NCBI GenBank assembly: GCA_038211455.1
Contig: JBBQVP010000003.1
Coordinates: 157 to 64,156, forward strand
Origin: Burkholderiales bacterium
GTDB taxonomy: Bacteria; Pseudomonadota; Gammaproteobacteria; Burkholderiales; SG8-39
Reading direction: 5' to 3'
Length of the DNA: 64,000 nucleotides
The notes under the pieces were generated by a model that searched no databases, had not been told where the DNA came from, and saw only the letters and a list, made by a program, of their open reading frames with translations. Position 1 is the first letter of the stretch. Each line of letters opens with the position of its first letter. Below are positions 1 to 17,328 of the stretch, one piece after another. A program made the translations under genes and the position numbers.

Positions 1-3000
1 ACGACGGGCGCGGTGACAGTGCTGACGCTGGCGGAGACGACGGACGACACGGATTCGATCTTCGGGGTGACGGGCGCGGCTGACATCATCGTCACGGGCG
101 GCGGCACGACACGCAACATCGTCATCGCGGGCCTCGGGGCAGACCATGTGAACGATCCTGGGATCACGCCGACCGATGTGCCAAGTGACGGCGATGACAT
201 CGTGCTGGGCGACAACGGCTACGTCACCTGGGACACCGCGGGTGTGCTGACCGCGTTTGCTTCGACCCAGCTCGCGCAGGGCGGCGACGATATCGTCTAC
301 GTCGGCAATGGCGATAACATTGTGGTGGGTAGTGTCGGCTCCGACGTGATCGTCGCGGGCTCGGGGCGTGATGTACTGATCGGTGACAACGGCCATGTGA
401 CCTACTGGGCGGGCTCTCTGCAGGCGAAGAAGGCGGAAACGACCGACACGGTCAACCAGCCGGGCTGGAACGACGTGATTGTCACCGGGGACGGCGTGAA
501 CATCGTGTTGGCGGGCATGGGCTCTGACCATGTAAACAATCCGCTCGTGTCCACAGGGGCCGTGCCCGGCAGCGACGACGATTTCGTCATGGGTGACAAC
601 GGCGAGTTCAACTGGGACAGCGCCGGACGTCTGGAACTCTTCAAGAGTACTGAACCGGGTTCCGGTGGTGACGACGTGCTCTGGGTGGGAGATGGGCAAA
701 ACTACGTGGTCGGCGGTTTCGGCGCCGATGTGATCAAAGCGGGTGTCGACAACGACGTGCTCTTGGGCGATAACGGCGAAGTCAGCTACACGGCAGGTAC
801 GACACTGGTTCTGCAGGCGAAGACCACCGACGCGACGCTGGGTGGGAACGATGAGATCGATGCTGGTCAGGGCGATAACCTTGTTCTCGCGGGCAAGGGT
901 GCGGACACGGTTGACGCCGGTACCGGCGCAGATCTGGTGATCGGGGACAACGGCCAGATCGACTGGACTTCGGCCGGCATCCTTTACCAGCTGGAGACGA
1001 CCGACACCCTGGCCACGACGGGTGGGAACGACATCCTCCGGGTCGGTGACGGCGACAACTTCGTGATGGGTGGGATGGGGGCGGACTTCATCGTCACGGG
1101 CCTTGGCACCGACACCATCCTGGGCGATAACGGAATCGCGCAGAAGGATGCGGTTGGCCTTGAGTTCGCGCTGGTAGCGACGAAGTCGCAGCCAAGCGCA
1201 GGCGGCGGGGTGGTGGACCTGGGTGGTAACGACCACATCGAGACGGGTGACGGGGACAAGCGGATCCTGGGTGGTGATGGGGCGGACTTCATCCTTGCGG
1301 GCAACGGCAACCATCTGGTGATGGGCGACAACGGCACGATCAGCTACGTGGGGATCGGTCTGACGGGTGCGGGGCTGCCGGAGATCTTCGAGACGACGGA
1401 CACGTTGGCGGCGACGGGTGGCGACGACCGGATCACTCTGGGTAATGCCACGGGCGAGAGCTTCGTGCTGGGTGGTATGGGCGCGGACACGATCCTGACG
1501 GGTTCGGGCACGCACACGATCCTGGGTGACAACGGGATTGCGCAGAAGGACATTGAGGGCAACAACTTCGCGCTGGTGCGCACGAAGTCGCAGCCAAGCG
1601 CAGGCGGCGGGGTGGTGGACCTGGGTGGTAACGACCACATCGAGACGGGTGACGGGGACAAGCGGATCCTGGGCGGTGATGGGGCGGACTTCATCCTTGC
1701 GGGCAATGGCAACCACGTGGTGTTCGGTGACAATGGCCAAGTGACCTATGTGGCGTTGGGCCTTCCAGGAGCCGGTCTGGAGAGACTTTACGAAACCACT
1801 GACACCATTACCGTCACGGGCGGAAATGATGCGATAACGCTGGGAGACGGGAATGGCGTTGTCATCGGCGGGATGGCCGCGGATACGATCACGACCGGGA
1901 CTGGTGGCGAAACGATCCTGGGCGACAACGGACGTATTGAAAGGGACGCCACCGGTGCCGTGTTTGTACGGATCGAAACGACGGTAATCGATCAGGGTGG
2001 TGGCGACGCAATCCTGACCAGAGACGGCAACAAGATTGTTCTTGCGGGTTATGGCAACGACTCCGTTGTGACCGGCACTGGCGACGACATCGTGTTCGGC
2101 GACAACGGTGAAATCGATTTCACCAACGGGATCATCACCAGACTTGCCACCACCGATGTCATCGCGTCGACGGGCGGCGACGACAACATCAATGCGGACG
2201 ATGGCACGAATATTGTCTTCGCCGGGGTAGGCAACGATGCCGTACGGACCGGTGCAGGGGCTGACATCATTGTTGGCGATAACGGCACGATCACCAACGA
2301 TCCGAACGGCATCATCCTGCAAGTCATATCCGGTGATCCTCTGCTCGGCGGCAATGATGCCGTGTCGACGGGCGACGGAAGCAACATTGTCATCGGTGGC
2401 GTTGGAAACGACGCCGTCTTTGGTGGCGCCGGGACGGATCTACTGTTCGGAGACGCCGGCCGTATTGACTTTGTCAACGGGGTCGTGAGCTATATTCTCC
2501 CGATTGACGTCATGCTGGGTGGCGACGACATCCTGGACGGCGCGGGCGGACGCGACATTCTGATCGGCGGTATTGGGTTCGACCAGTTGGGCGGTAATCT
2601 GACCGATGACCTGCTGTTTGGCAGTGTCGCTGCAATCACGCTTTCGGGCGGGACCGTCGCGACCCTGGAAAGCGAATGGCCGGATCTGGAAACCTATACG
2701 CTGTACTCGGCCTTCGATGTTCGCGATGGTGATCGAGGTATCGGCAACCAGCCGTTGACCAGGAAAATCGACCTGCTAGTACCGCGCAAGGGTGCGAGCG
2801 AAGCGCCAGGCAGTGAAATCGGACTATCCACACCGTTGCTCGAAGCGACGGTATTCCAGAAGCTTTTCAATTCGCAGGTCGTGCATCAGCCGTCGTCGCC
2901 CTCGCGGAGCGTGCTCACCGAGGCGGAAGCAGATTCGGTGGCGGGCGGGCAAGGTCTTGGTAACCGAGGTCTGAACGAACCCGGACCGAACGATCAGGGT

Positions 3001-3594
3001 TCGAACGAGCAGCGTTCCAATGAACAAGAGCCCAATGGGCAGAATCCAGGTGCGACAGATCCGAACGGTCAGCTACGGCAAATTCCATCCGGAACGGAAG
3101 AACTGCCCGGACGGTTCCAGGGGCAAGGCGCGGAGCCAGCAGCGGATTCAACTGACGGTCTGGCAGCAGGAGCAGTGAATGTCGGGGGGCTGGTGCTGGA
3201 GGACGGGACAGCCGTAGGTGTACTTGCGGCGGGAGTCGCCGGGGCAATTGGCGTAGAGAGTGTTCTAGGGCGCTCTGCTGCTCCCGGTGGCTATACCGCT
3301 GCTTCAACTGCCAGGCTCTATGATCCAAAGACGGGAAAGATGTCCGCCCGTCCGGAAGTCGGGTCGAAGACGCGTTCAGGGATCCTCGACCGCGATGCCA
3401 TGGCTGGTGGGCGCGAAGGAAAGCCGGCGAGCTTGACGCGGCGTGCGCTCGACGCCATTACGCGCAGGTGGTTCGGGTCGGTTGCAGTTGAGCAGGGCAT
3501 GGCGGTTCACAAGCCGCAGTTGGAGGCCTCAACGCTAGATACGCAGACGGCGCAGAAGCCTCATGAAACCCGGAAGACCCGCATCGAGTGGTAG
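1..3594 (+). CDS. Giant Ca2+-binding beta-roll / RTX-like repeat protein, 5' end outside the window
   Basis: Frame 1 is open from nt 1 (track ORF 13..3594). Units of about 65 aa rich in GxGxD / GDNG motifs are repeated more than 12 times. Canonical RTX nonapeptides GGDDILDGA-GGRDILIGG-IGFDQLGGN lie at about nt 2518-2625. The non-repeat C-terminal ~320 aa has a Q/N/E/P-rich tract, a Gly/Ala hydrophobic stretch and a basic tail. Confidence 0.8.
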   Translation, partial: TTGAVTVLTLAETTDDTDSIFGVTGAADIIVTGGGTTRNIVIAGLGADHVNDPGITPTDVPSDGDDIVLGDNGYVTWDTAGVLTAFASTQLAQGGDDIVYVGNGDNIVVGSVGSDVIVAGSGRDVLIGDNGHVTYWAGSLQAKKAETTDTVNQPGWNDVIVTGDGVNIVLAGMGSDHVNNPLVSTGAVPGSDDDFVMGDNGEFNWDSAGRLELFKSTEPGSGGDDVLWVGDGQNYVVGGFGADVIKAGVDNDVLLGDNGEVSYTAGTTLVLQAKTTDATLGGNDEIDAGQGDNLVLAGKGADTVDAGTGADLVIGDNGQIDWTSAGILYQLETTDTLATTGGNDILRVGDGDNFVMGGMGADFIVTGLGTDTILGDNGIAQKDAVGLEFALVATKSQPSAGGGVVDLGGNDHIETGDGDKRILGGDGADFILAGNGNHLVMGDNGTISYVGIGLTGAGLPEIFETTDTLAATGGDDRITLGNATGESFVLGGMGADTILTGSGTHTILGDNGIAQKDIEGNNFALVRTKSQPSAGGGVVDLGGNDHIETGDGDKRILGGDGADFILAGNGNHVVFGDNGQVTYVALGLPGAGLERLYETTDTITVTGGNDAITLGDGNGVVIGGMAADTITTGTGGETILGDNGRIERDATGAVFVRIETTVIDQGGGDAILTRDGNKIVLAGYGNDSVVTGTGDDIVFGDNGEIDFTNGIITRLATTDVIASTGGDDNINADDGTNIVFAGVGNDAVRTGAGADIIVGDNGTITNDPNGIILQVISGDPLLGGNDAVSTGDGSNIVIGGVGNDAVFGGAGTDLLFGDAGRIDFVNGVVSYILPIDVMLGGDDILDGAGGRDILIGGIGFDQLGGNLTDDLLFGSVAAITLSGGTVATLESEWPDLETYTLYSAFDVRDGDRGIGNQPLTRKIDLLVPRKGASEAPGSEIGLSTPLLEATVFQKLFNSQVVHQPSSPSRSVLTEAEADSVAGGQGLGNRGLNEPGPNDQGSNEQRSNEQEPNGQNPGATDPNGQLRQIPSGTEELPGRFQGQGAEPAADSTDGLAAGAVNVGGLVLEDGTAVGVLAAGVAGAIGVESVLGRSAAPGGYTAASTARLYDPKTGKMSARPEVGSKTRSGILDRDAMAGGREGKPASLTRRALDAITRRWFGSVAVEQGMAVHKPQLEASTLDTQTAQKPHETRKTRIEW
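1117..1914 (+). repeat. Intragenic tandem duplication (two ~400-nt / 134-aa units) inside the RTX-like gene
   Basis: Unit 1 starts at ATCCTGGGCGATAACGG (1117) and unit 2 at 1519 (offset 402 nt). By my hand alignment the core 1180-1314 matches 1582-1716 with only two mismatches (1272 T/C, 1305 C/T). The flanks are much more diverged. Confidence 0.85.
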
Positions 3595-3787
3595 TCGATA
3601 TCGCTCCGCGGTAGCGGAATCCGAGCGGACGCAAGGCCCCGACTTATTCCCTGCGCGTGATCCTCGCGTCTGGCGCGCAATTGAGCATGGTCCGCTTTTG
3701 CGGGACGAGCGCATACAAAGGGTGATGCAACGTCACGCCGTGTAGAAGCGGGATTCCCGACCATCGAATTAAAGAAAAAACTTATAA

Positions 3788-5662
3788 TTGCCCGTTGTGA
3801 AAATCCTCTCCAGTTCCGAAAATGCAGGCATAGAGGAACTAGTTCCCGTCTGGGGACATCTTGCCAGTGCGACGACGCGAAGCGAGTTCTTTAAATCGTG
3901 GCTGCAGCTCCAATGCGAAGCCATTTCGGGAACGATCAGCGGCGTTGCTGTCATAGGCACCGCGGATACCGGTCCGTTTGCTCCAGTCGCATTCTGGCCG
4001 AGCCAGCAGGGCGGCGCACCGCGGCTTGCAGAGGTTGCAGAAAAGGCACTCGCTGAACGGCAGGCCGTGTTGAGCGCGTTGATGCCGCAAGAGAGCCCAA
4101 ATACGCATGTAGACCGATCGCACGGGCTGGCGTTCCCCATCGAATTCGATCACCAGTTGTACGGCGTGGTTGCCGTAGAGGTATCCGATCGACCAGACAG
4201 TGAATTGCAGTGGGCGCTACAAAGACTGCAATGGGGTAGCGCGTGGGTAGAAGCCTATCTGAGGGGCGAGCAGCAGAGGGAAAGTGATGCTACCCAAGAG
4301 CGCCTCATCACCGCATTGGACATGGTCGCCTCCGTGGTGGAGGAAACCCGCTTCGATCCGGCGTGTCGCAGTCTCGTAACGGAGCTCGCGATCAAACTGC
4401 AATGTGACCGCGTCAGCCTTGGAATCGTGCGTCGAGGCCATACCGAAGTGGTCGCGCTGTCGCATAGTGCACAGTTCGGAAAGCGCATGAACCTCATCCA
4501 TGCAGTCGGAGCGGCAATGGATGAGGCGATAGACCAGAAAGCCGTGGTTAGGTATCCAGCGGACGGCGACGACGAGATGGTCGTTATCAGAGACCATGAG
4601 CAGTTGGCGACCATGAATGGAATTGCAGCGGTATTAACGGTGCCCATGGTCGGTCGGGAAGGATTTGCGGGTGCTTTGACTTTCGAGCGTCCTGCCGGCA
4701 TACCGTTTCTCGATTCCGATGTGGAACTCTGCCAGTCTGTCGGCGCTGTGGTTGCGCGGATCCTGGAGATTCAGGAGATCAACGAGCGCTCGCTGTTCCG
4801 GAGGTTTCTGGATTCGGGCAAGACCGAGCTGGAAAAATTGATCGGCCCCCGTCATATCAAGAGAAAGCTGGTCATGGCAGTTTCAGTGTTTCTGGTGGGA
4901 TTCTTTTCCATTGCCACACAGGACTACCGCGTAACCGCCAATGCAACGCTTGAGGGGGCGGTCAGGCGGACCCTGGCGGCGCCGTTCGACGGCTATATTC
5001 TGAGCGCCAAGGCACGGGCTGGGGACGTTGCGACCGAGGGCGCCGTTCTCGCCACGCTCGACGATCAGGACTTGCTGCTGGAACGATTGAAATGGGCAAC
5101 CCAATACGCGCAGTACCTGAAGCAGCATCGGGAGGCTGTGGCAAACCACGACCGCGCCAAAGCGCAAATTGCGGAGGCCCTGTACGAACAGGCACGCGCG
5201 CAGGTCAACCTTCTGGACGAGCAGCTGTCGCGTGCGGCCATCAAGGCGCCGTTCGATGGGGTGATCGTCAAAGGGGATTTGTCGCAAGCACTGGGATCTG
5301 CGGTAAAGCGCGGAGACGTCCTGTTTGAAGTCACGCCTCTGCAGTCGTACCGGGTCATCCTCGAGGTGGATGAAGGCGAAATAGTGGACGTAGCGACTGG
5401 GAGGAAGGGCGCTTTGGTGCTGGGTTCGATTACCGACGCCACGTTTCCATTCACCATAAGGAACGTTACACCGGTCACTAACGCACGTGAAGGGCGGAAC
5501 TATTTCCGGGTGGAGGCTATCCTTGAAGGCGCAACGCAACGCTTGCGTCCAGGCATGGAAGGGGTTGGAAAAATTGAGGTAGAACCCAGAAAGGTGATCT
5601 GGATCTGGACGCACAAACTGGTGAACTGGGCCAGGCTGTTCCTGTGGACTTACCTGCCATGA
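3788..5662 (+). CDS. Tandem-GAF domain protein fused to a HlyD-family membrane-fusion (periplasmic adaptor) domain
   Basis: The N-terminal ~330 aa show two GAF-like patterns (e.g. ...VLTVPMVGREGFAGALTFER...). One TM helix (LVMAVSVFLVGFFSIA). Then a HlyD-type lipoyl/coiled-coil/beta-barrel region (APFDGYILSA...IKAPFDGVIVKGD...). The start is uncertain: TTG 3788 or GTG 3797, with no clear SD. Confidence 0.8.
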   Translation: MPVVKILSSSENAGIEELVPVWGHLASATTRSEFFKSWLQLQCEAISGTISGVAVIGTADTGPFAPVAFWPSQQGGAPRLAEVAEKALAERQAVLSALMPQESPNTHVDRSHGLAFPIEFDHQLYGVVAVEVSDRPDSELQWALQRLQWGSAWVEAYLRGEQQRESDATQERLITALDMVASVVEETRFDPACRSLVTELAIKLQCDRVSLGIVRRGHTEVVALSHSAQFGKRMNLIHAVGAAMDEAIDQKAVVRYPADGDDEMVVIRDHEQLATMNGIAAVLTVPMVGREGFAGALTFERPAGIPFLDSDVELCQSVGAVVARILEIQEINERSLFRRFLDSGKTELEKLIGPRHIKRKLVMAVSVFLVGFFSIATQDYRVTANATLEGAVRRTLAAPFDGYILSAKARAGDVATEGAVLATLDDQDLLLERLKWATQYAQYLKQHREAVANHDRAKAQIAEALYEQARAQVNLLDEQLSRAAIKAPFDGVIVKGDLSQALGSAVKRGDVLFEVTPLQSYRVILEVDEGEIVDVATGRKGALVLGSITDATFPFTIRNVTPVTNAREGRNYFRVEAILEGATQRLRPGMEGVGKIEVEPRKVIWIWTHKLVNWARLFLWTYLP

Positions 5663-5693
5663 AACGCCCGGATTCCCTCCTTCCGGACTGAAC

Positions 5694-7853
5694 GTGGAAT
5701 CCCTGTTCAGTTCCTCCTGGTACCGGGTTGCGAGCGTCGTTCCACGCCTGCGCGGCCACGCTGCCATCCACAGGCACGTCTACCGGGGGAAAGTCTGGTA
5801 CGTGCTTCAGGATCGTGCCACGGGTCGGTATCACCGTTTTTCGCCGATAGCTAACATGGTGATCGGGTTGATGAACGGCAAAAGATCCGTTCGCGAAATC
5901 TGGAATGTTGCCTGCACCCGCCTGGGCGACAACGCGCCGACACAGGACGAGGTTATCAATCTGCTTGCGGCCCTGCACAGGGCCGACGTGCTGCAGACCG
6001 ACGCATCGCCCGATATCCAGGAGCTGCAGGAAAGAAAGATTCTGCAGGAACGCATGAAACTCAAGCAGTACATCCAGAGTCCGCTGTCGCTGCGTATTCC
6101 ATTGCTCGATCCGGACCGGATTCTTCTTTGGATGAGCCCGCTGACGAATCGCCTGTTTGGATTGGGGGGCGCCATCCTCTGGCTGCTTGTAGTCGGATGG
6201 GGAGTTGTCCTGGCTGCTTCAAACTGGACCGAACTGACCAAGGACATGGGTGATCGGATCTGGTCTGCGCAGAATCTTGTCCTGATGGGCTTGGTGTTTC
6301 CGATTGCCAAGATAATCCATGAATTCGGACACGCTGCGGCAGTCAAAGCGCGCGGTGGAGAAGTGCACGAAATGGGCGTGATGCTCCTCGTGCTGATGCC
6401 AATCCCTTACGTGGATGCGTCGGCATCGCTTGCGCTGCGGGAGAAGCGAGACCGAATGCTGGTTGGGGCCGCCGGCATGCTGGTTGAATTGTTCGTGGCG
6501 GCGCTTGCGCTGTTCGTATGGATCAACGTCGAGCCCGGCCTGGTGCGCGCTGTCGCCTACAACGTAATGATTGTGGCGGGCATATCGACGCTTATATTCA
6601 ATGCGAATCCACTGCTTCGCTTTGACGGCTATTACATACTCGCCGATTACCTGGAAATACCGAACCTGGGCCAGCGTTCGAACGAGTATCTCGGCTATCT
6701 AATAAATCGTCACGTTTTCGGAGTCAAGACGGCCGTTTCGAAAGAGTCCACACCGGGGGAGCGTCGCTGGTTCGTCTTCTATGCCATCGCGTCGTTCATC
6801 TATCGGATGTTCGTAATGATCTCCATCGCGCTTGTTGTCGCGCAACGCTACTTCGTGATCGGTGTTCTGTTCGCCGTCTGGTCGTTGTACTCATCGCTGG
6901 TGGTCCCGCTCGGCAAGAAGCTTGCCTACCTGTTCTCGTCCTCGGAACTCCATGGCCGCAGAGTCCGTGCGCTCACGGTAACCGGCTTCACAGTTGCAAT
7001 CCTCGCGATTGCCATCGGCTGGCTTCCCGCGCCATCCTGGACCCGCTCGGAGGGGGTTGCCATCGCGCCGATCAACACGCACGTAAGAGCGACGGTAGAT
7101 GGTTTCATTACGAAGGTCGTCGCGTCGCCCAATCAACTGGTCAGGCGCGGGGATCCGTTGATTTTCACCGAAGACCCCGAATTGAAAGCGCGTGTGCAGT
7201 CACTCGAGGCGCAACTGCTTGAGCAGCAGGCGCGCTATGCGGCGGCACGCGAAGATCGAGTGCAACTAAACATAATCGCGGAGGAAATCCTGCAGGTCTC
7301 AGAGCGGCTGACTAACGCGCGTCAGCGACTCCGTGACCTTGTAATACGCAGCCCGAGCGACGGTTACTTTGTCATGCCGCAGGCGGATGACGCGCCTGGA
7401 AAGTTTGTGCATCGAGGTGAATTGCTGGGCTATGCCCTCGACTTCACCAAGGTGACCGTGCAGGTGGTCGTTCCGCAGAGCGATATAGACATCGTTCGCG
7501 AGATGACGCGTCGTGTGCAACTTCGGCTCGTAGAGCGCGTTGCGGAGGTATTGCCAGGCACAGTTCTCCGGGTCGTGCCGGCGGCGACCGATCAGCTGCC
7601 CAACATGGCGCTGAGCGCACAAGGTGGAGGCGAGGTACCGCTTGATCCGTCTGCGCCGGCCGATCCGGCTCGCAAGGGGGAATCCAAGGCGGCGACGACA
7701 ATGTTTATTTTTGAACTGGAAATCGAGAATAGGGACAGAATCAGTGCACTTGGCAGCCGGATCTACGTTCGGTTCGAGCGAAGACCGGAACCCCTTGCGC
7801 ATCAGTGGTATCGGGCGGTCAGAGGCGTCCTGCTCAAGAAGTTCAATGTTTGA
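5694..7853 (+). CDS. Site-2 protease (peptidase M50) fused to a C-terminal HlyD-type adaptor domain; N-terminal PqqD/RRE-like segment
   Basis: HEFGH zinc motif (IIHEFGHAAAVKARGG) and the second S2P motif NANPLLRFDGYY. Multiple TM helices. The C-terminal ~280 aa have HlyD-like hairpin/barrel signatures (ATVDGFITKV...IRSPSDGYFVMP). GTG start at 5694, 31 nt after the upstream stop. Confidence 0.85.
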   Translation: MESLFSSSWYRVASVVPRLRGHAAIHRHVYRGKVWYVLQDRATGRYHRFSPIANMVIGLMNGKRSVREIWNVACTRLGDNAPTQDEVINLLAALHRADVLQTDASPDIQELQERKILQERMKLKQYIQSPLSLRIPLLDPDRILLWMSPLTNRLFGLGGAILWLLVVGWGVVLAASNWTELTKDMGDRIWSAQNLVLMGLVFPIAKIIHEFGHAAAVKARGGEVHEMGVMLLVLMPIPYVDASASLALREKRDRMLVGAAGMLVELFVAALALFVWINVEPGLVRAVAYNVMIVAGISTLIFNANPLLRFDGYYILADYLEIPNLGQRSNEYLGYLINRHVFGVKTAVSKESTPGERRWFVFYAIASFIYRMFVMISIALVVAQRYFVIGVLFAVWSLYSSLVVPLGKKLAYLFSSSELHGRRVRALTVTGFTVAILAIAIGWLPAPSWTRSEGVAIAPINTHVRATVDGFITKVVASPNQLVRRGDPLIFTEDPELKARVQSLEAQLLEQQARYAAAREDRVQLNIIAEEILQVSERLTNARQRLRDLVIRSPSDGYFVMPQADDAPGKFVHRGELLGYALDFTKVTVQVVVPQSDIDIVREMTRRVQLRLVERVAEVLPGTVLRVVPAATDQLPNMALSAQGGGEVPLDPSAPADPARKGESKAATTMFIFELEIENRDRISALGSRIYVRFERRPEPLAHQWYRAVRGVLLKKFNV

Positions 7854-9840
7854 CACTAAGTCGCTGCTCCCAATCGTCCGCCCGGTGTATCCGGAGCAGG
7901 CAGACGCGCCCCCGGACAACTGGCTCGACGAAATTGGAGAGCGGTTTGTTGGGGCGATGACGCGCTCTGTGAGCGCGTGGCGAATCGGTCGGATCGATAT
8001 TGTCGCGTCGGTACGCACGCATGAAAAGCTGTTGGTCGGACTTGATCAGGACGCTCTCAGGGAGCGTGCACGCGATCTGGGAAAGTTGCTCCGGCGCGAC
8101 GGGTTTCGCCCGGATCTAGTCGCGCAAACGTTCGCCGTGATTTCTTCGCTCGCCGAATTGACGCTCCGCATGCGTCCCTTCGATGTCCAACTGCGCGGTG
8201 GCTGGATACTCGTGAACGGCATGGTTGCCGAAATGGAGACTGGCGAAGGAAAGACGCTCACTGCAACATTGCCTGCTTGCACTGCGGCTCTCGCGGGCGT
8301 GCCGGTACACGTGATCACCGTCAACGATTACCTGGTGACGCGTGATTCGGAGCTGATGACGCCTCTTTACGAGGCGCTGGGGCTTAGCGTCGGCGCCGTA
8401 ACTGAAACGCAGAACCCGGAGCAGCGGAAGCAGGCGTACACGCGAAACATCACCTATGGAACCAACAAGGTGATTGTATTCGATTATTTACGCGATCGAA
8501 TTACCCTGGCCTCTCAGAACAGCTCGATCAGATTACGAATGGAAAGTCTGGCCGGCCGAGGGTCACGGGTCCATCGCTTGCTCCTCAGGGGATTGTGTTT
8601 TGCGATCGTTGACGAGGCGGACAGCGTACTAATCGATGAAGCGCGAACGCCCCTGATCATTTCCGCGCCATCCGAGTCCGGTGATGAGGAGCTCGTCGCA
8701 CGGCAGGGAATCGAAATTGCGGAAACGCTAATCCGGAACGAGGACTATGCGATCCTCGGTAGCGAGAGGACGGCGGTACTTACGCAAGAGGGTCGCCGCC
8801 ACCTGGATGAAATCTGCGAGAAATACGGAGGCGTCTGGGCCGGGTTGATGCGCCGCGAGGAGCTCGTTACACAGGCATTGGTCGCGTTGTACATCTTTTC
8901 CCGTGACGATCACTATCTCGTTCGAGACGGCAAGATCCAGATCATCGATGAGTATACGGGAAGGGTGATGGCCGACCGCTCTTGGGAGCGCGGGATGCAT
9001 CAACTGATCGAGGTGAAGGAGGGGTGTGAAGTGACTGCGCAGAAGGAGCCGCTGGCGCGTATTAGTTACCAGCGTTTTTTTCGGCGCTACCTCCATCTTT
9101 CCGGAATGACCGGAACCGCGAAGGAAGTCGCTTCGGAGCTGGGCGCGGTTTACGGACTGTCTGTAGTTCGCATTCCGACGAATCGGCCGAGCAAGCGAAA
9201 GGTACTGCCCGAACGGGTTTTTGTAACCGAAGCCGAAAAGTGGGCATCGATTTCCGATCGTGTTCGAGAGATACACGCGCTTGGTCGTCCCATACTTCTT
9301 GGAACTCGTTCGGTCGCAGAGTCAGAACTGGCGAGCAACGTGCTAAACGATTTGCGGGTGGAGCATCAGGTTTTAAACGCAAAACAGGACGGAGAAGAGG
9401 CCGCAATCATTGCGTTGGCCGGAAAACGTGGCCAGATTACTGTTGCAACTAACATGGCCGGGCGTGGGACTGACATCAAACTGGATGAAGGTGTCGCCGA
9501 CGTCGGGGGCCTGCACGTGATCCTTTCGGAACGCCACGATTCCAAGCGAATAGACAGGCAGCTCGCCGGCCGCTGTGCGCGGCAGGGTGATCCGGGATAT
9601 TTTGAGTCGATTCTTTCAGTCGAAGGTTCGCTGAAATCTCTCGCAGGGGATTCTTTCCGGGCATTTTTTGGCCGATTGATATCTGGTTTTGGGCCCGGAT
9701 GGGTCGCTATACTTGGATCCTTTGTGATTCGGCAGGCGCAGAAGCGAGCAGAGCGTGCCCATACAAGGACACGCAAGGCGCTTCTCAAGCTGGACCAACA
9801 AATGGCGAAGGCGCTGTCGTTCTCGGGCCGAAATGAATGA
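7846..9840 (+). CDS. SecA-like DEAD-motor ATPase, truncated after the start of the helical scaffold (664 aa)
   Basis: Walker A METGEGKT, VITVNDYLVTRD, VDEADSVLIDEARTPLIIS, a PPXD-like insert, ATNMAGRGTDIKL, GRCARQGDPG, then IRQAQKRAERAHTRTRKALLKLDQQ and stop. ATG 7846 overlaps the upstream stop (ATGTTTGA). The track start at 7624 lies inside the upstream gene. Confidence 0.85.
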   Translation: MFDTKSLLPIVRPVYPEQADAPPDNWLDEIGERFVGAMTRSVSAWRIGRIDIVASVRTHEKLLVGLDQDALRERARDLGKLLRRDGFRPDLVAQTFAVISSLAELTLRMRPFDVQLRGGWILVNGMVAEMETGEGKTLTATLPACTAALAGVPVHVITVNDYLVTRDSELMTPLYEALGLSVGAVTETQNPEQRKQAYTRNITYGTNKVIVFDYLRDRITLASQNSSIRLRMESLAGRGSRVHRLLLRGLCFAIVDEADSVLIDEARTPLIISAPSESGDEELVARQGIEIAETLIRNEDYAILGSERTAVLTQEGRRHLDEICEKYGGVWAGLMRREELVTQALVALYIFSRDDHYLVRDGKIQIIDEYTGRVMADRSWERGMHQLIEVKEGCEVTAQKEPLARISYQRFFRRYLHLSGMTGTAKEVASELGAVYGLSVVRIPTNRPSKRKVLPERVFVTEAEKWASISDRVREIHALGRPILLGTRSVAESELASNVLNDLRVEHQVLNAKQDGEEAAIIALAGKRGQITVATNMAGRGTDIKLDEGVADVGGLHVILSERHDSKRIDRQLAGRCARQGDPGYFESILSVEGSLKSLAGDSFRAFFGRLISGFGPGWVAILGSFVIRQAQKRAERAHTRTRKALLKLDQQMAKALSFSGRNE

Positions 9841-9877
9841 TCGCCACCTTGTATCGCAGCACAATTTGGAAGAACGC

Positions 9878-10696
9878 ATGAAATACCTTGTCTGGGTGTT
9901 AACGCTCGTAGCTGCACTGGGCGCCCATTTTCAGGCGCACGCGCAGAACCCTGTGCGGCAAGGCGACGCTATCTCTGAGCCGCGCAGAGTATTGCGGGCA
10001 CCGCTCCCGAGCGCTTCCGAGGCTAAGTCGTCGCGAAACGCTTGGGACTGTCTGCTGGAGCCCCACTTGGTGGTAAGCGTGGGGAGCCCGATCGATGGGG
10101 TAATTCAGGAGGTGTTGGTTGATCGCGGCGACGAGGTGCGCAAAGGCCAGGTCGTGGCACGACTGCAGTCGGGTGTGGAGTCGGCGGCCGTGGAACTGAC
10201 CAAGGCACATATTGAGTTCGGGAAACGGAAGGTAGAACGCAACGAGGTGCTGTATCAAAAGCAGCTGATTTCCGCGCAGGACAAGGACGATATGGAGACC
10301 GAAGTTCGCCTGCGGGAACAGGAACTGAAGCGAGACCTCGAAAATTTGAAACTTCGCACTATTGTCAGTCCGCTGGACGGAATAGTCGTAGAACGACGTC
10401 TCACGAAAGGTGATCTGGTCCGGGCCGACAGGTCGGTGGTGCTGCGACTTGCGAAGATCGATCCGCTGAATGTGGAGGTCATCGCGCCCAGCGAATCCTA
10501 CGGGGCAGCGCGCATCGGGATGTCCGGCACCGTCAGCCTGCAGCCACTGCTCCCCGGTTCCTACAAAGCTACGGTTGTCACGGTCGACAAACTCATCGAT
10601 GCGGCGAGCGGGACCTTCGGGATTCGGCTGCAAATGCCGAATCCCGGAAACAAGATTCCCGCTGGGCTGAAATGTAGTGTCCGGCTGAATAAATAA
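9878..10696 (+). CDS. HlyD/efflux-type periplasmic adaptor (membrane fusion protein) with Sec signal peptide
   Basis: Internal ATG 9878 gives MKYLVWVLTLVAALGAHFQAHA-QNP (signal peptide). Lipoyl-like motifs (SPIDGVIQEVLVDRGDEVRKGQVVARL; SPLDGIVVER) and a short coiled coil. Confidence 0.8.
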   Translation: MKYLVWVLTLVAALGAHFQAHAQNPVRQGDAISEPRRVLRAPLPSASEAKSSRNAWDCLLEPHLVVSVGSPIDGVIQEVLVDRGDEVRKGQVVARLQSGVESAAVELTKAHIEFGKRKVERNEVLYQKQLISAQDKDDMETEVRLREQELKRDLENLKLRTIVSPLDGIVVERRLTKGDLVRADRSVVLRLAKIDPLNVEVIAPSESYGAARIGMSGTVSLQPLLPGSYKATVVTVDKLIDAASGTFGIRLQMPNPGNKIPAGLKCSVRLNK

Positions 10697-10755
10697 GCCG
10701 TCGCTGGTCGCGGTCGGGGCCGCTGGCTCGCAAGCAGGGGCCTTTGGTGAGCCTC

Positions 10756-10797
10756 TTGACCGGCGTCAATGAGGCGCGCGACTCGAGCGACCATAGT
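10756..10797 (+). promoter_or_regulatory. Crp/Fnr-type box TTGAC-CGGC-GTCAA plus -10-like CATAGT upstream of fhs
   Basis: Perfect palindromic half-sites at 10756-10769. The hexamer CATAGT (10792-10797) is centred 32 bp downstream of the box centre, which is class II (-41.5) geometry. The fhs ATG is at 10835. Confidence 0.55.
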
Positions 10798-10834
10798 GCT
10801 CCCCACTGATAAAAATCCAAGCAGGGGACCTTCC

Positions 10835-12505
10835 ATGCCTTCCGATATCGATATCGCACAAAAAGCCACGCTGCAGCGCATCGCAAAAGTTGCCCAGGAC
10901 AAACTCGGGATTGCCGAGGAACACCTGGAACCGTATGGCCATACGAAGGCGAAAGTTTCGTTCGAGTACCTGGAGACGCTGAAGGGCCGCAAGGACGGCA
11001 AGCTGATCCTGGTCACTGCGATCAGCCCCACCCCGGCGGGCGAAGGCAAGACCACGACCACCGTGGGCCTGGGCGACGCGCTTAACTACATCGGCAAGAA
11101 GGCCGTGATCTGCCTGCGCGAGCCCTCGCTCGGGCCGGTGTTCGGCGTGAAGGGCGGGGCGGCGGGCGGCGGCTACGCGCAGGTGGTCCCGATGGAGGAT
11201 ATCAACCTGCATTTCACCGGTGATTTCGGCGCGATCCAGCTGGCCAACAACCTGCTCGCTGCGCTGATTGACAACCATATCAGCCATGGCAACGAACTGG
11301 GTATCGATGTCCGCCGGATCCAGTGGAAGCGGGTCCTGGACATGAACGACCGCGCGCTGCGAGACATCGTGGTGGCGCTGGGCGGGACGGCCAACGGCTA
11401 TCCTCGCGAGGACGGCTTCGAAATCGTCGTCGCCTCCGAGGTCTTGGCTATCTTCTGCCTCGCGACATCGATCGAGGATCTTAAGAAGCGACTCGGCAAC
11501 ATCGTCATCGGATATACGCGTGACCAGAAGCCGGTTTGCGCGCGCGACCTGAGCGCCCATGGCGCGATGACCGTCCTGCTGAAGGACGCGCTCAAGCCCA
11601 ACTTGGTGCAGACTCTGGAGAACAACCCCGCGTTCATCCACGGCGGCCCGTTCGCGAATATCGCCCACGGCTGCAATTCGGTGATCGCGACGCAGGCGGC
11701 GCTCAAGCTCGCCGACTACGTGGTTACGGAGGCCGGTTTTGGCGCAGACCTTGGCGCGGAGAAGTTCGTCGACATCAAGTGCCGGAAGTCCGGATTGCGG
11801 CCATCGGCGGCTGTCATCGTGGCCACCGTGCGCGCCATGAAGTACCACGGCGGCGCTGACCTGAAGACCATCACCACCGAGAACGTGGATGCGCTTGCCA
11901 AGGGCATCGTGAACCTCGAGCGGCACGTCGAGAACGTGCAGAAGCACTACGGCATCCCATGCGTCGTGTCGATCAACAAGTTCGACGCTGACACCAAGGC
12001 CGAACTCGACCTCCTGTACGAGCGCATGAAAAAGCTGGGCGTGCCAGTCGTGCTGGCATCGCACTGGGCTGAGGGCGGCAAGGGTGCGGCCGAACTGGCA
12101 AACATGGTCGTCGAACTGTGCGAGCAGAAATCAAACTTCCAGTTCGTGTACGAAGAGCAGGACACGCTCTGGGAAAAGGTCAACAAGATCGCGAAGAAGA
12201 TCTACCGCGCTTCCGAGGTCACGGCGGACACCAAGGTCCGCAACCAGATCAAGAAGTTGCAGGAGGACGGGTACGGCCACTACCCCGTCTGCGTGGCCAA
12301 GACCCAGTCCTCGTTCTCCACGGACGCCTCGCTGCGCGGCGCGCCCGTCGACCACGTGGTCAATGTGCGCGAAGTCCGCCTCGCGGCTGGTGCGGAGTTC
12401 GTCGTAATGGTCTGCGGCGACATCATGACGATGCCCGGCCTGCCCAAGGTGCCCTCGGCCAACAAGATCGACTTCGTGGACGGAAAGGTCGTCGGCCTGT
12501 TCTGA
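10835..12505 (+). CDS. fhs: Formate--tetrahydrofolate ligase
   Basis: [16 protein letters not shown]... N-terminus, P-loop [15 protein letters not shown], and full-length (~556 aa) collinear resemblance to Fhs. The start was moved from the track's 10769 to ATG 10835. Confidence 0.95.
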
Positions 12506-12548
12506 CACCCGGTAAAATTCGCGCACCTCGAAGCGGGAGTTTGCACAG

Positions 12549-13295
12549 ATGCTCGAAATGCTCGGCTCGTACGATTTCTGGCTGGGACTGGCCAAGATCA
12601 TTGGCGTTAACATCGTGCTTTCCGGTGACAACGCGGTCGTGATCGCGCTTGCGGCGCGGTCGCTGCCGGCACGCCAGCAGAAGCTGGCGATATTCTGGGG
12701 TTCGGGGGCGGCGATCGTGATGCGGATCGTGCTCACGCTGTTCGCCGTGCAGCTCCTGGGGCTGCCCTGGCTGAAGCTTGTCGGCAGCCTGCTCCTCTTC
12801 TGGATCGGGGTGAAGCTGCTGGTCGAGGACGACGGTGGCGACGACATCGAGTCCAGCGATAACCTGATTGCCGCGATCAAGACGATCCTGATCGCCGATC
12901 TGGTGATGAGCCTCGACAATGTCATCGCGGTGGCCGCGGCTGCGGCAGGAAACATGACCCTGCTGGTCCTCGGGCTCGCGATTTCCATCCCGATGGTGAT
13001 CTTCGGTGCGACGCTGCTGCTCAAGCTCATGGAGCGCTTCCCGGTGATCATCACCGTCGGCGCCGCGCTGATCGGCATGGTGGCGGGGGAAATGCTGGTT
13101 ACAGACATCGCGCTGAAAGACTGGCAGAGCGCTGCCGGAATCGCGTTCGATGCAGCCGGAAAGCCGCATATCGGCGGGTTATCGCTGGAACTGCTTGCGG
13201 GGGCGCTGGGCGCGGCTTTCGTCGTGGCTTACGGCACCTGGCTTGCGAGGCGGGCTGAGGCAGGGCGGGCGGTAGGGGATGCCGGCAAAGGATGA
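12549..13295 (+). CDS. TerC/YjbE-family integral membrane protein
   Basis: Duplicated LSGDNAVVIALAA / MSLDNVIAVAAAA motifs typical of the TerC family, in a multi-TM protein. Lies 43 nt downstream of fhs. Confidence 0.8.
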   Translation: MLEMLGSYDFWLGLAKIIGVNIVLSGDNAVVIALAARSLPARQQKLAIFWGSGAAIVMRIVLTLFAVQLLGLPWLKLVGSLLLFWIGVKLLVEDDGGDDIESSDNLIAAIKTILIADLVMSLDNVIAVAAAAAGNMTLLVLGLAISIPMVIFGATLLLKLMERFPVIITVGAALIGMVAGEMLVTDIALKDWQSAAGIAFDAAGKPHIGGLSLELLAGALGAAFVVAYGTWLARRAEAGRAVGDAGKG

Positions 13296-13315
13296 ACTAC
13301 GCAATGCGGTTTTTG

Positions 13316-13357
13316 TTGATAGCAATCAAGTGAGATACTCGGGAGCGTAAGCACAAT
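13316..13357 (+). promoter_or_regulatory. Fnr/Crp-consensus box TTGAT-AGCA-ATCAA plus -10-like CACAAT upstream of tctC
   Basis: Perfect 14-bp palindrome at 13316-13329. CACAAT (13352-13357) is centred exactly 32 bp downstream of the box centre. Confidence 0.55.
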
Positions 13358-13406
13358 TCGGGGAACGATCAACGCGGCAGGACCACACACAGACGGTTCG
13401 CCGCAC

Positions 13407-13437
13407 GACGCGTACGGACAGCTCAGGACGCGTACGG
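13407..13437 (+). repeat. 11-nt direct repeat GACGCGTACGG x2 in the tctC leader
   Basis: Copies at 13407-13417 and 13427-13437, a 20-nt period. They lie between the predicted promoter and the strong RBS AAAGGAGG. Confidence 0.6.
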
Positions 13438-13465
13438 GGCAGTTTCATAAAAAGGAGGCAGGAAA

Positions 13466-14485
13466 ATGACACAGAAATTCAGCAAAGGGCTGTGCGCCGG
13501 GCTTGCGGCGGTCGCCATGGCGGGATTGCCGCTCGCCAGCTACGCAGCATGGGAGCCAACCAAGACGGTGGAGTTCATCGTGCCGGCAGGTACTGGCGGC
13601 GGCGCCGACCAGATGGCGCGCGTAATCCAGTCAATCATCGCCAAGCACGGACTGGTCAAGACCTCGATGGTTGTCGTCAACAAGGGCGGGGGTGCGGGGT
13701 CCGAGGGGTTTCTGGATGTCAAGGGTGCCGCTGGCGACCCGCACAAGATCATCATCACGCTCTCGAATCTATTCACGACGCCGCTCGCGCAAGGCACGCC
13801 GTTCAACTGGCGTGACCTGACTCCGGTGCAGATGATGGCGCTGGACCAGTTCGTTCTGTGGGTGAATGCCTCAAAGCCCTACAAGACGTCCAAAGAGTAC
13901 ATCGACGCCGTCAAGAAGGCGGGACCGAACAAATTCAAGATGGCGGGAACAGGCGCCAAGCAGGAAGACCAGATCATCACCGCCGCAATCGAGCAGGCGA
14001 CCGGCACGAAATTCATTTATATCCCGTTCCGCGGCGGCGGCGACGTCGCCGTGCAGCTGGTCGGCAACCACGTTGATTCGACAGTCAACAATCCGATCGA
14101 AGCCGTGGCGCAGTGGCGAGCCGGCAAGCTCAGGGCGCTGTGCGTTTTCGACCCCAAGCGCATGCCGTACAAGACTAAGGTCAGCGAAACAATGGCCTGG
14201 TCCGACATCCCGACCTGCAAGGAACAGGGCCTTGACGTCGATTACCTCATGTTGCGCGGGATCTTCATGGCCGGTGGCGTCACGCCCGAGCAGGTGCAGT
14301 ACTACGTCGATGTATTGAAGAAAGTGCGCGAGACGCCGGAATGGAAGGACTTCATGGAGAAGGGCGCGTTCAACCAGACCGCTCTTTCCGGGAAAGACTT
14401 TGCTGATTGGGTGGCAAAAGAGGAGGCGCGCCACATCGGCCTCATGAAGAAGGCAGGATTCATGGCCGCACCTGCAGCAAAATAA
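13466..14485 (+). CDS. tctC: Tripartite tricarboxylate transporter substrate-binding protein (Bug/TctC family)
   Basis: Signal peptide (GLAAVAMAGLPLASYA), about 320-aa mature protein with Bug-family pattern (VPAGTGGGADQMAR...VVNKGGGAG), followed by tctB/tctA-like genes. Confidence 0.85.
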   Translation: MTQKFSKGLCAGLAAVAMAGLPLASYAAWEPTKTVEFIVPAGTGGGADQMARVIQSIIAKHGLVKTSMVVVNKGGGAGSEGFLDVKGAAGDPHKIIITLSNLFTTPLAQGTPFNWRDLTPVQMMALDQFVLWVNASKPYKTSKEYIDAVKKAGPNKFKMAGTGAKQEDQIITAAIEQATGTKFIYIPFRGGGDVAVQLVGNHVDSTVNNPIEAVAQWRAGKLRALCVFDPKRMPYKTKVSETMAWSDIPTCKEQGLDVDYLMLRGIFMAGGVTPEQVQYYVDVLKKVRETPEWKDFMEKGAFNQTALSGKDFADWVAKEEARHIGLMKKAGFMAAPAAK

Positions 14486-14494
14486 CGGCGAAGA

Positions 14495-14518
14495 GCCGCC
14501 GCGCTTTTGCGCGGCGGC
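14495..14518 (+). other. Perfect GC-rich intercistronic hairpin between tctC and tctB
   Basis: GCCGCCGCGC-TTTT-GCGCGGCGGC: 10-bp perfect stem with a 4-nt loop and no downstream U-tract. Confidence 0.6.
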
Positions 14519-14531
14519 GCAGGGACGAGGC

Positions 14532-15038
14532 ATGAAACAAAAAACCAACAGCAACGCCTCCATCGGCACCAAGGGCGTGGAGATCGGCGTTGCGCTGATC
14601 GTCCTCGCGCTTGGCGCCCTGGTAATCTACGACAGCGCGCGGCTGGGAGCGAAGTGGGCCGACGACGGCCCACAGGCGGGCTACTTTCCCTTCTATATCG
14701 GCGTGATGCTTTGCGTCGCGAGCGCCGTGAATCTGGTGCGGGCACTGTTGTTGAAACCCGCAAAAGCGTCTGTTTTTGTCGAGTACGGGCAACTCAAGCT
14801 CGTGATGAAAGTACTGATCCCGACGGCGGTGTATGCGGGCGTGATTTCAACGCTGGGCCTGTACCTTGCATCCACCGTGTTCATTGCCTTCTTCATGCGC
14901 TGGCTAGGAAGATATCCGTGGTGGAAAGTTGCGCTTGTCAGCATTGGAAACAGCGTGTTTTTCTTCCTCGTCTTCGAGATGTGGTTCCGAATCCCGTTGC
15001 CCAAGGGACCGCTCGAAGCGGCTCTGGGTCTCAACTAA
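14532..15038 (+). CDS. tctB: Tripartite tricarboxylate transporter small membrane subunit (TctB family)
   Basis: 168-aa, four-TM hydrophobic protein positioned between tctC-like and tctA-like genes. Confidence 0.75.
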   Translation: MKQKTNSNASIGTKGVEIGVALIVLALGALVIYDSARLGAKWADDGPQAGYFPFYIGVMLCVASAVNLVRALLLKPAKASVFVEYGQLKLVMKVLIPTAVYAGVISTLGLYLASTVFIAFFMRWLGRYPWWKVALVSIGNSVFFFLVFEMWFRIPLPKGPLEAALGLN

Positions 15039-15050
15039 GGGTTGACTGGG

Positions 15051-16559: not shown

Positions 16560-16560
16560 G

Positions 16561-17169
16561 CTAGTCCAGCAGCTTCTGCTTCAGCCTCGATAGCGTTTCT
16601 GGCGTCAGGTTGAGATAGGCGGCAAGTTCCTTTTTGGGGATCCGGCCGCTGAGTTCGGGATGCTTTCGCTGGAAGCGCAGCAACCGGCCGGGGGCGTCCA
16701 GAAGGTGCAGGGTGATGGTGTGCGCCATGACCTCGGACATCAGCTTCATGACCTCGTACTCGAAGCGTGACTTGACCTGCTCGTGGCGGTCGAGGAATTC
16801 GACCCAAAGTGGCATGGAGATTTTTGCGGTACGCACTTTCGTGACTCCGACGATCGAGTACGGAACCGGTGTCTTGAGGCGCCAGGCGGCGTAAGAAGTG
16901 TCCATGTCGGTTTCGGCGGCGAAACGCAGGATCATTTCGTGGCCCTCGGAATTGGACACCACCCGCTTCAGCATTCCGTCGAGCACGAAGAACTGCTCCA
17001 TTTCGGTGTCGCCCTGCCGGACCAGCAGTTCTCCCTTGCCGTAATCGGCGATGTCGAGCAACGGCTCCAGTTCGTCCCAGTCGGCCGGCGACATGTCGCC
17101 GAGGACGAGATTCTGCTTGAGCTGCAACCGGACAGTATTGTTTTGCGGGTGGTTCGCGATCGATGCCAT
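16561..17169 (-). CDS. Crp/Fnr-family transcriptional regulator (cNMP-binding-type effector domain + HTH)
   Basis: Beta-roll effector-domain pattern (GELLVRQGDTEMEQFFVLDGMLK). C-terminal HTH IPKKELAAYLNLTPETLSRLKQ carries the Fnr-type E-xx-SR recognition motif. There is no N-terminal Cys cluster. Confidence 0.85.
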   Translation of the reverse strand: MASIANHPQNNTVRLQLKQNLVLGDMSPADWDELEPLLDIADYGKGELLVRQGDTEMEQFFVLDGMLKRVVSNSEGHEMILRFAAETDMDTSYAAWRLKTPVPYSIVGVTKVRTAKISMPLWVEFLDRHEQVKSRFEYEVMKLMSEVMAHTITLHLLDAPGRLLRFQRKHPELSGRIPKKELAAYLNLTPETLSRLKQKLLD

Positions 17170-17215
17170 TGCGGCGGGACGCGTGGGCGGGCCGGGCGCG
17201 TATTTTAGACGAAAA

Positions 17216-17261: not shown

Positions 17262-17328
17262 ACCTGCCTACACAAAAAGGCTGGTTCCGGTAGCAGCTCA
17301 TGGTGGTAGCAACGCACAGGAGGCCGCA

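Follow-up and report, generated by a model that had tools for sequence, protein, structure and literature searches.

What might a SecA-type ATPase serve for when the parts through which SecA is coupled to SecY and to the membrane are missing from it? This question is raised by a locus within a stretch of 64,000 nucleotides (in the following, the window) from a Burkholderiales bacterium (NCBI GenBank assembly GCA_038211455.1, contig JBBQVP010000003.1, positions 157 to 64,156 of the forward strand), where a gene for a SecA-like ATPase of 664 amino acids (7846-9840, forward strand) is found as the fourth of five co-directional and tightly spaced genes. A preliminary description, made from the sequence alone, had regarded the product as a polypeptide-clamping ATPase uncoupled from SecYEG. 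Since the coupling parts are absent and the motifs of the ATPase and of the preprotein cross-linking domain (PPXD) are invariant, a clamping ATPase which does not use SecYEG in the canonical manner is a fair reading of the sequence. The notion of a simply uncoupled protein did not hold, as the gene is locked in a conserved operon. That it is fixed among genes for membrane-fusion adaptors and an M50 protease, with a TolC gene adjoining in Methylosinus, suggests that the SecA-like motor has been recoupled to a type-I-like envelope-spanning machine. We assign a probability of roughly 0.6 to the reading that the SecA-like protein is the cytoplasmic ATPase of a dedicated exporter of this kind, for which the giant RTX-type protein encoded upstream is the probable cargo.

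Domain content and end point of the SecA-like protein

The gene consists of 664 codons in one uninterrupted frame (TGA at 9838-9840) and starts with an ATG that overlaps the stop codon of the gene before it, which encodes a fusion protein with an M50 protease domain (ATGTTTGA). Its assignment is based on matches to Pfam, NCBIfam and PDB sequences, on an AlphaFold2 model and on alignment with E. coli SecA. Pfam identified SecA_DEAD (amino acids 51-432, E 1.9e-96), SecA_PP_bind (289-389, E 5e-23) and P-loop_SecA (from 449), while no match to SecA_SW was obtained in the 664-residue protein, and BLASTP aligned residues 52-664 with E. coli SecA residues 24-665 at 39% identity. Collinearity with SecA through nucleotide-binding domain 1 (NBD1), the PPXD and NBD2, which had been read by eye in the preliminary description, is thereby borne out. 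The AlphaFold2 model (43 homologues) was obtained with a mean confidence score (pLDDT) of 75.7 and terminates in a helix of 39 residues (617-655), followed by a low-confidence tail. Upon searching with this model, Foldseek returned SecA structures as the only high-significance matches, the best TM-scores being those of SecY-bound SecA with a closed clamp (6itc_A, 0.78; 5eul_A, 0.77). The domain mapping that had been proposed as a check thus gave SecA_DEAD and SecA_PP_bind but not SecA_SW, with a model matching SecA structures. The nearest PDB sequences are C. difficile SecA2 (top) and B. subtilis SecA, with E values of about 1e-125 and alignments reaching query residues 653-655.

At the N-terminus, amino acids 1-51 (7846-7998) were identified by alignment, AlphaFold2 and charge count as a family-specific region, which is acidic, predicted to be disordered in residues 1-23 and invariant at Y15 and E17 in an alignment of 43 sequences. 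The net charge of the first 25 residues is -2 as compared to +7 in E. coli SecA, and the acidic region is predicted to stand in the place of SecA's basic lipid-binding N-terminus. An N-terminal extension of about 95 residues, as first described, is too long, given that SecA homology starts at about residues 51-55 (Pfam profile position 18; E. coli residue 24), which leaves a true extension of about 28 residues. The first part of NBD1 (residues 52-275, 7999-8670), delimited by invariant columns, the E. coli SecA alignment and the pLDDT profile, contains Walker A (GEGKT, K136) and Walker B (VDEAD, D256/E257) and carries a low-confidence insertion at about residues 219-249, as revealed by the same profile. 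It is followed by the PPXD (about residues 276-408, 8671-9069; identified by SecA_PP_bind, with limits from the E. coli alignment), by the second part of NBD1 (residues 409-451, 9070-9198), which aligns to E. coli residues 378-420, and by NBD2/IRA2 (residues 452-612, 9199-9681), which was recognized by P-loop_SecA, invariant columns and the E. coli SecA alignment and possesses the invariant motifs TNMAGRGTD (R540) and GRCARQGDPG. The long scaffold helix, located by the AlphaFold2 helix and the BLASTP alignment, covers residues 617-655 (9694-9810; approximately E. coli 621-657), and the protein closes with a tail that is conserved in the alignment and has a pLDDT below 50 (...LSFSGRNE, residues 656-664; 9811-9840 including the TGA).

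In E. coli SecA the N68 fragment comprises residues 1-610, the scaffold helix extends to approximately residue 668, the wing domain covers residues 669-755, IRA1 with the two-helix finger residues 756-832 and the tail residues 833-901. Within this frame, FSGRNE of the query comes to lie opposite YSQRNE (E. coli 660-665), i.e., the tail matches IYSQRNE (659-665) just before the wing domain. By alignment, the protein is judged to consist of NBD1, PPXD, NBD2 and essentially the whole long scaffold helix, and its predicted end is the scaffold/wing junction (E. coli 665). The earlier statement that it stops just past the start of the scaffold helix has to be revised, as the 39-residue terminal helix of the model and an alignment reaching E. 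coli 665 correspond to the whole first scaffold helix. What does stand is that the 664-residue protein is without the wing domain, the two-helix finger and the C-terminal tail: SecA_SW is missing, the alignment ends at E. coli 665, and tblastn with E. coli SecA 666-901 recovered no C-domain remnant in the window in any frame (best E 0.32). Likewise, judged from the alignment, IRA1 and the basic N-terminal lipid anchor are absent.

As compared to housekeeping SecA (E. coli, 901 amino acids; B. subtilis), the motor, the PPXD, the long scaffold helix, Walker A and B and the arginine finger are common to both, whereas the wing domain, IRA1/two-helix finger, C-terminal linker, zinc/SecB-binding tail and basic amphipathic N-terminal helix are lacking from the short protein. 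Relative to E. coli SecA the latter moreover possesses the 28-residue acidic N-terminal extension and an insertion of about 18 residues in NBD1, and is devoid of the E. coli NBD2 insertion of about 30 residues. A motor without the C-terminal regulatory domain is likewise represented by E. coli SecA-N68, a laboratory truncation which stops at about residue 610, before the scaffold helix. Unlike N68 (PDB 5K9T), which was recovered by Foldseek, the natural short protein retains the whole long helix (to E. coli 665) and constitutes a conserved family with an operon of its own. SecA2 of Gram-positives and mycobacteria is, like the short protein, a second SecA paralogue beside the housekeeping one, and M. 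tuberculosis SecA2 is also without the wing domain. However, SecA2 proteins (PDB 6T4H, 4UAQ) retain the second scaffold helices and the two-helix finger and use SecYEG or SecY2, whereas the short protein is found without these parts and in another gene context. All of its named relatives belong to diderm lineages, and neither SecY2 nor Asp genes were found in the loci examined. The NCBIfam models were matched below their cut-offs, both for SecA (579.6 versus 814 bits for NF009538 and 570.8 versus 800 for TIGR00963) and for SecA2 (TIGR03714, 455 versus 930; TIGR04221, 441 versus 725; TIGR04397, 528 versus 1085; NF012136, 378 versus 1100 bits).

The same length recurs throughout the family. The closest named relatives of the window protein are from Burkholderiales and Rhodocyclaceae, and the best 120 homologues (58-89% identity) are nearly all 660-668 residues long. 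In a library at 50%-identity clusters, nearly all of the best 150 representatives have 650-690 residues, the exceptions being a few fragments and one canonical SecA of 1,240 residues, P0262; this protein, the first bearing SecA_SW, appears at about rank 142 with 487 bits, and the approximately 140 clusters ranked above it are all of the short type. Across phyla, identity within the family amounts to 44-59%, as compared to 39% to E. coli SecA. Invariant in the 43-sequence alignment are GEGKT, VDEAD, TNMAGRGTD and RQGDPG as well as L657, F659, G661 and E664, the family C-terminal signature being LSFSGRxE. In a scan of one genome per species, 66 loci were recovered. Their hosts belong to the Alpha-, Beta- and Gammaproteobacteria, Desulfobacterota, Nitrospirota, Verrucomicrobia, Acidobacteria, Latescibacterota and Tectomicrobia, and the complete matches among them reach, with few exceptions, to within a few residues of query position 664. 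Many short SecAs are named 'prepilin peptidase' by RefSeq/PGAP, apparently an annotation error, others 'DEAD/DEAH box helicase' or 'preprotein translocase subunit SecA' (examples are P0093 and P0109, and the genes at 12034-13950 of locus L071 and 11920-13944 of locus L073); such misleading database names make the family invisible to annotation-based surveys.

The operon in the window and in related genomes

The five genes of the window, all on the forward strand, begin with the 3' part (1,197 codons) of a gene for an RTX-repeat protein (1-3594), the putative cargo, whose frame is already open at base 1, so that the contig end truncates it, and whose repeats are recognized by the Pfam family HemolysinCabind. 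Next follows adaptor 1 (3788-5662), for which Pfam (GAF, HlyD_3, HlyD_D23), NCBIfam (RND_mfp) and hydropathy predict a cytoplasmic N-terminal domain with GAF, one transmembrane helix (amino acids 357-375) and a periplasmic HlyD/RND-type domain. Adaptor 2 (5694-7853) is predicted by NCBIfam, Pfam and hydropathy to combine a PqqD-like N-terminal domain with an intramembrane metalloprotease of the M50 (site-2-protease-like) type, which spans the membrane with about 6-7 helices, and with a membrane-fusion domain on the periplasmic side. Here the NCBIfam model daptide_HExxH was matched with E 9e-47, Pfam PqqD and Peptidase_M50 were matched weakly, HlyD was found in addition, and the protease motifs HEFGH and NANPLLRFDG are intact; RefSeq names the orthologues 'PqqD family protein' or 'site-2 protease family protein'. 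Downstream of the SecA-like gene, adaptor 3 (9878-10696) is a small, predicted periplasmic membrane-fusion protein with an N-terminal signal/anchor sequence (MKYLVWVLTLVAALGAHFQAHAQ), identified by RND_mfp with 113.9 bits (above the cut-off) and by HlyD_D23 and HlyD_3. Its alternative ATG at 9833 overlaps the SecA-like stop codon. The preliminary description had rightly taken this downstream open reading frame (ORF) for an adaptor with a signal sequence of its own, as both Pfam and NCBIfam assign it to the HlyD/RND type. HlyD_3 and HlyD_D23 are present in all three adaptors, whose hairpins, estimated from the domain limits, are of similar lengths, about 60 amino acids each.

The genes past adaptor 3 are unrelated and encode a formate-tetrahydrofolate ligase, a TerC family protein and a TctC family receptor. 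The third-position GC of the five operon genes amounts to 0.63-0.72 versus typically 0.74-0.84 in most neighbours (10769 onward; formate-tetrahydrofolate ligase, 0.84), which fits horizontal acquisition of the module. Neither in the window operon nor in the related loci inspected was a gene for an ATP-binding cassette (ABC) transporter found. Promoter and terminator scans of 3400-11000 performed no better than on shuffled sequence, and neither Rfam families nor tRNAs were found in the window. An anti-phage defence system was considered and dismissed, as PADLOC gave no match. The idea of a split SecA, the C-domain of which had moved to a partner protein, was rejected as well: when the cytoplasmic N-regions of 45 GAF-adaptor and 55 M50-fusion sequences were compared by hhalign with E. 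coli SecA 611-901, no match emerged (probability below 1%).

In related loci this gene order recurs. By automated count, 51 of 55 loci have the M50-adaptor fusion immediately in front of the SecA-like gene, with locus L044 being a 52nd case missed solely through a coordinate artefact; the GAF-adaptor is found upstream in 49 of 50, and the third small adaptor at most 1.5 kb downstream in 51 of 59. HExxH is present in 48/48 orthologues of the M50 fusion, and the second site-2 protease (S2P) motif, NxxPxxxxDG, in 34/48 when the strict pattern is applied. Between the giant gene and the GAF-adaptor, 26 of 43 loci (approximately 60%) possess a DUF3467 gene (e.g., L001 5624-5938; L002 5675-6004) encoding a small and highly conserved protein. 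A role of DUF3467 as a SecB-like chaperone was considered. Searches against the PDB with phmmer and hmmsearch gave nothing meaningful, the comparison with E. coli SecB by hhalign was limited to a pairing of VLSPFAAKRL with ILFPYARECI (probability 0.2%, not significant), and the AlphaFold2 model reached a pLDDT of 48. A TolC family gene directly follows the operon on plasmid pMSC49a of the cultured Methylosinus sp. C49 (GYH34_RS19185-19210), and an OEP protein is encoded about 8 kb from the module in L016.

Variations of the arrangement were observed in single lineages. In Pseudosulfitobacter sp. DSM 107133 a SapC family gene is located between the M50 fusion and the SecA-like gene; SapC genes are known from S-layer type I loci. 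The SapC-type inserts comprise about 273-277 amino acids (L073 11106-11927 in Pseudosulfitobacter, and an ORF of equal size and position, L080 11113-11946, in Ensifer adhaerens). Four extra genes separate the M50 fusion and the SecA-like gene in a Latescibacterota locus (L059 5205-9987). In Methylotenera the small adaptor is enlarged to 434 amino acids and contains Sel1 repeats (L069 12000-13304), and the equivalent ORF of a Methylophilaceae metagenome-assembled genome has 462 amino acids (L003 11925-13313).

A family of this kind was described by Kamneva, Poudel & Ward in 2015 (PLoS One 10:e0129066; PMC4452313), who reported 'secondary SecA_DEAD domain proteins' with SecA_SW absent or present as a fragment, encoded in diderm hosts in a locus with GAF-HlyD, Peptidase_M50-HlyD, SecA_DEAD and HlyD/biotin-lipoyl proteins, sometimes along with an OEP protein. 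In the same part of the work it was proposed that SecA_DEAD was co-opted as the ATPase of a type-I-like system with the M50 protein as membrane component; the Peptidase_M50 similarity was called weak, and horizontal acquisition of the module was already suggested. The window protein has both features, SecA_DEAD without SecA_SW and the GAF-HlyD/M50-HlyD/HlyD locus, and differs in no way in kind. PMC4452313 names no substrate, and a search of its text gave no statement on a cargo, RTX, adhesins or DUF3467; nor was a mention of the PqqD-like domain or of the exact truncation point found in the sections consulted. We found no earlier report of the giant upstream gene, of the LEPR-XLL N-termini of its products, of intact M50 motifs behind a PqqD-like domain or of the adjacent TolC gene in Methylosinus, and the literature yielded a single later paper citing the 2015 work and no experimental study of the secondary SecA_DEAD family.

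The putative cargo and the proposed export route

Where upstream genes are complete, their products are giant: 14,100 amino acids in Ideonella, 15,258, 12,860 in Methylotenera, 8,847 in Methylosinus, 12,918 in Pseudosulfitobacter, 10,603 in Pontibrevibacter and 10,518 in Mesorhizobium ciceri. Of the 27 loci whose upstream flank measures at least 5 kb, 15 were found by manual count to have a same-strand upstream ORF of more than 1,500 amino acids reaching the locus edge. Two plasmid loci with nothing listed upstream in the gene tables also have a large ORF there, and in two loci (L007, L068) a large ORF lies downstream instead of upstream. The upstream ORF of the window is 37-42% identical, over about 1,000 amino acids, to the C-terminal parts of the 14,100- and 15,258-residue proteins (L001, L002). 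As an observation on L068 (Methylophagaceae), the large protein downstream of the module (12966-18962, 1,998 amino acids; a second span at 19069-20454) comprises DUF4347, cadherin-like, Big_9, DUF285 and LamG-type domains and carries a degenerate N-terminal motif, FEELNARQLFSG, that is NF012209-negative.

Five of the six readable cargo N-termini scored above the cut-off of the NCBIfam model LEPR-XLL (NF012209). These N-termini consist of a basic stretch followed by (F/L)ExLEPRxLLSAD and possess no hydrophobic Sec-type core. At the other end (compared for window 3300-3594 and for L001-L003, L018, L028, L030, L037, L044, L049 and L056), only a loose Trp-containing motif was identified in the last 30-60 residues (WLxxF, WFGS, WKxSF), and several cargo C-termini end in I-(D/E)-W or D-I-K-I. 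The C-terminal Trp motif may be a second recognition element, yet it is too loose to call.

According to the proposed mechanism, the ABC transporter of type I secretion would be replaced by the SecA-like motor together with the polytopic M50-protease/adaptor fusion, while the three membrane-fusion-type adaptors and probably a TolC-family channel would provide the periplasmic and outer-membrane conduit, the adaptors possibly forming a mixed ring which docks on TolC. Initially, a terminal signal of the cargo, most likely LEPR-XLL, would be captured by the PqqD-like domain and/or the PPXD. The SecA-like clamp would then feed the unfolded chain at the expense of ATP into a membrane complex built around the M50 domains, and the M50 protease would cut off the signal. 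Finally, the chain would exit via the adaptor/TolC tunnel, whereby calcium-driven RTX folding outside may favour outward movement. As a rationale, an N-terminal signal in combination with a SecA-type motor would allow threading to begin before a chain of 10,000-15,000 residues is complete. In this scheme we infer how the proteins contact one another, by which route and in which direction the cargo is transported, and that it is cleaved; the domain content, the truncation point, conservation, synteny, the giant neighbouring genes, LEPR-XLL and the intact protease motifs are observed.

A more far-reaching version of this proposal, which we hold tentatively and at somewhat less than even odds, assumes that the short SecA, the PqqD-M50-adaptor, the GAF-adaptor, the third adaptor and TolC, joined by DUF3467 or SapC in some lineages, constitute a distinct and so far unnamed pathway for LEPR-XLL giants. 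LEPR-XLL would here act as a RiPP-like leader (RiPP, ribosomally synthesized and post-translationally modified peptide) that is bound by PqqD and cut by M50, and the SecA-derived motor would take the place of the ABC protein for N-terminal, possibly co-translational threading.

Several points weigh against an exporter driven by the SecA-like protein. None of the operon proteins is a known protein-conducting channel, and to our knowledge S2P-type proteases do not form pores. No TolC gene was found among the scanned window genes; tolC is often unlinked in classical type I systems. The DUF3467 gene is absent from the window by tblastn and hidden Markov model search, the N-terminus of the window cargo lies off the contig, and in approximately 40% of the loci with enough flank no giant gene adjoins. 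The signal itself could be either the N-terminal LEPR-XLL or the weak C-terminal Trp motif. Furthermore, the window protein is one more member of the 2015 family, which is known from computation alone, and in Methylobacterium extorquens AM1 (META1p2399-2402) most operon genes are silent in exponential phase according to PMC4452313.

Among the alternatives, the SecA-like protein might act as a cytoplasmic holdase or unfoldase that maintains the giant chain in a state fit for export or passes it on to the M50 protease, or else as a regulator, with transport being powered elsewhere, e.g., by an unlinked ABC transporter or the proton-motive force. Classical type I RTX substrates do use ABC exporters, and a channel-forming partner is not evident in the operon. 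Chaperone-like activities of SecA, as described in PMC2248683, would also suit such a role, which nevertheless appears unlikely, given that the order of the three adaptor genes is strict and translationally coupled across phyla, that no ABC gene occurs in the loci examined and that the ATPase motifs are invariant. Lower still is the probability assigned to an accessory, SecA2-like SecA that delivers very large substrates to the housekeeping SecYEG, with the adaptors and TolC acting only after the periplasm has been reached. The visible cargo N-termini, basic and then LEPRxLLSAD without a hydrophobic Sec-type core, do not fit this route, nor does a protein devoid of the two-helix finger, wing, second scaffold helices and basic N-terminal lipid anchor, which scores under every NCBIfam SecA and SecA2 cut-off and has no SecY2 or accessory Sec genes in the loci examined; in its favour are the identity of about 39% to canonical SecA with motor and PPXD intact, the proximity of the AlphaFold2 model to the SecY-bound conformation and the placement of the clade beside actinobacterial SecA2, as given in PMC4452313.

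A RiPP-like machine for maturation and export of small leader-bearing peptides, with the giant neighbour being coincidental or merely co-regulated, was considered in view of the N-terminal 400 amino acids of the M50 fusion, which match the daptide protease model (E 9e-47), of the PqqD-like domain and of weak matches to NHLP bacteriocin and darobactin adaptor models. This is regarded as highly doubtful: the daptide match stays under the equivalog cut-off (160 versus 300 bits), giant genes are far too frequent upstream for chance and the giants themselves bear a short leader-like N-terminal motif, while no conserved genes for small precursors or modifying enzymes were noticed in the gene lists, a search for small precursor ORFs not having been made. 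Hardly any weight at all is left for a frameshift, an assembly error or a decaying SecA pseudogene, the first of which the preliminary description had named as what could overturn its view. Nothing beyond the length itself speaks for an artefact, which is refuted by family-wide conservation, with hundreds of homologues of the same length sharing the invariant C-terminal motif; in addition, no SecA C-domain remnant follows downstream in any frame, and the stop codon overlaps or abuts the start of the conserved adaptor gene. A dedicated exporter with the SecA-like protein as its ATPase is hence the reading preferred here.

Related systems, meaning and further genes of the window

Classical type I secretion requires the chain to be finished and unfolded and to carry its signal at the C-terminus, conditions ill suited to proteins of megadalton size. 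With type I systems (HlyB-HlyD-TolC; RTX adhesin exporters such as LapBCE) this type of operon shares the membrane-fusion adaptors, a large RTX cargo and, at some loci, a TolC gene, whereas it differs in the lack of an ABC transporter, the SecA-derived ATPase, the presence of three adaptors (one fused to M50, one to GAF) and a cargo that often bears LEPR-XLL. Among the LEPR-XLL proteins are the largest known from prokaryotes, for instance the 36,806-residue Cag_663 of Chlorobium chlorochromatii. A 2026 preprint describes C. chlorochromatii proteins of 36,806 and 20,647 amino acids with N-terminal LEPRxLL, whose genes have sapC and tolC as neighbours and are expressed together with Cag_1676, a 'secA' obtained by horizontal transfer. 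SecA_DEAD with PPXD but without scaffold and wing was reported inside giant proteins of Omnitrophota and Actinobacteria and proposed to aid their export (West-Roberts et al. 2023, bioRxiv 10.1101/2023.11.21.568195). Those SecA-like modules reside within the giant polypeptide and are very divergent, whereas that of the window is a separate and well-conserved protein of 664 amino acids.

For the passage of proteins with 10,000 to over 30,000 residues across two membranes, the operon gives a concrete export hypothesis that is genetically testable in the cultured strains Methylosinus sp. C49, Ensifer adhaerens, Mesorhizobium ciceri R30, Pseudosulfitobacter sp. DSM 107133 and M. extorquens AM1. The SecA motor would behave here as a module that was cut at the scaffold/wing junction and re-used away from SecYEG. 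The interest of the locus lies less in the truncation than in the operon's possible link to export of the largest proteins, which was not found stated in the literature.

Elsewhere in the window, a run of signalling genes on the forward strand (21723-32519) comprises a CHASE2-Ser/Thr kinase (21723-24356), a CHASE2-adenylate/guanylate cyclase (26043-28259), a GAF-MshEN-T2SSE secretion-type ATPase (28466-30826) and a GAF-HD_5 (HD-GYP-like) protein (30846-32519). GAF and MshEN sensors on one ATPase of the type II/IV secretion family are an uncommon combination. Further genes at 32610-34730 (forward), 37071-39668 (reverse) and 45898-47817 (forward) encode two TPR-rich family-41 glycosyltransferases and a NeuB-type sugar synthase fused to a xylose-isomerase-like TIM barrel, and together they look like a nonulosonic-acid or protein-glycosylation region.

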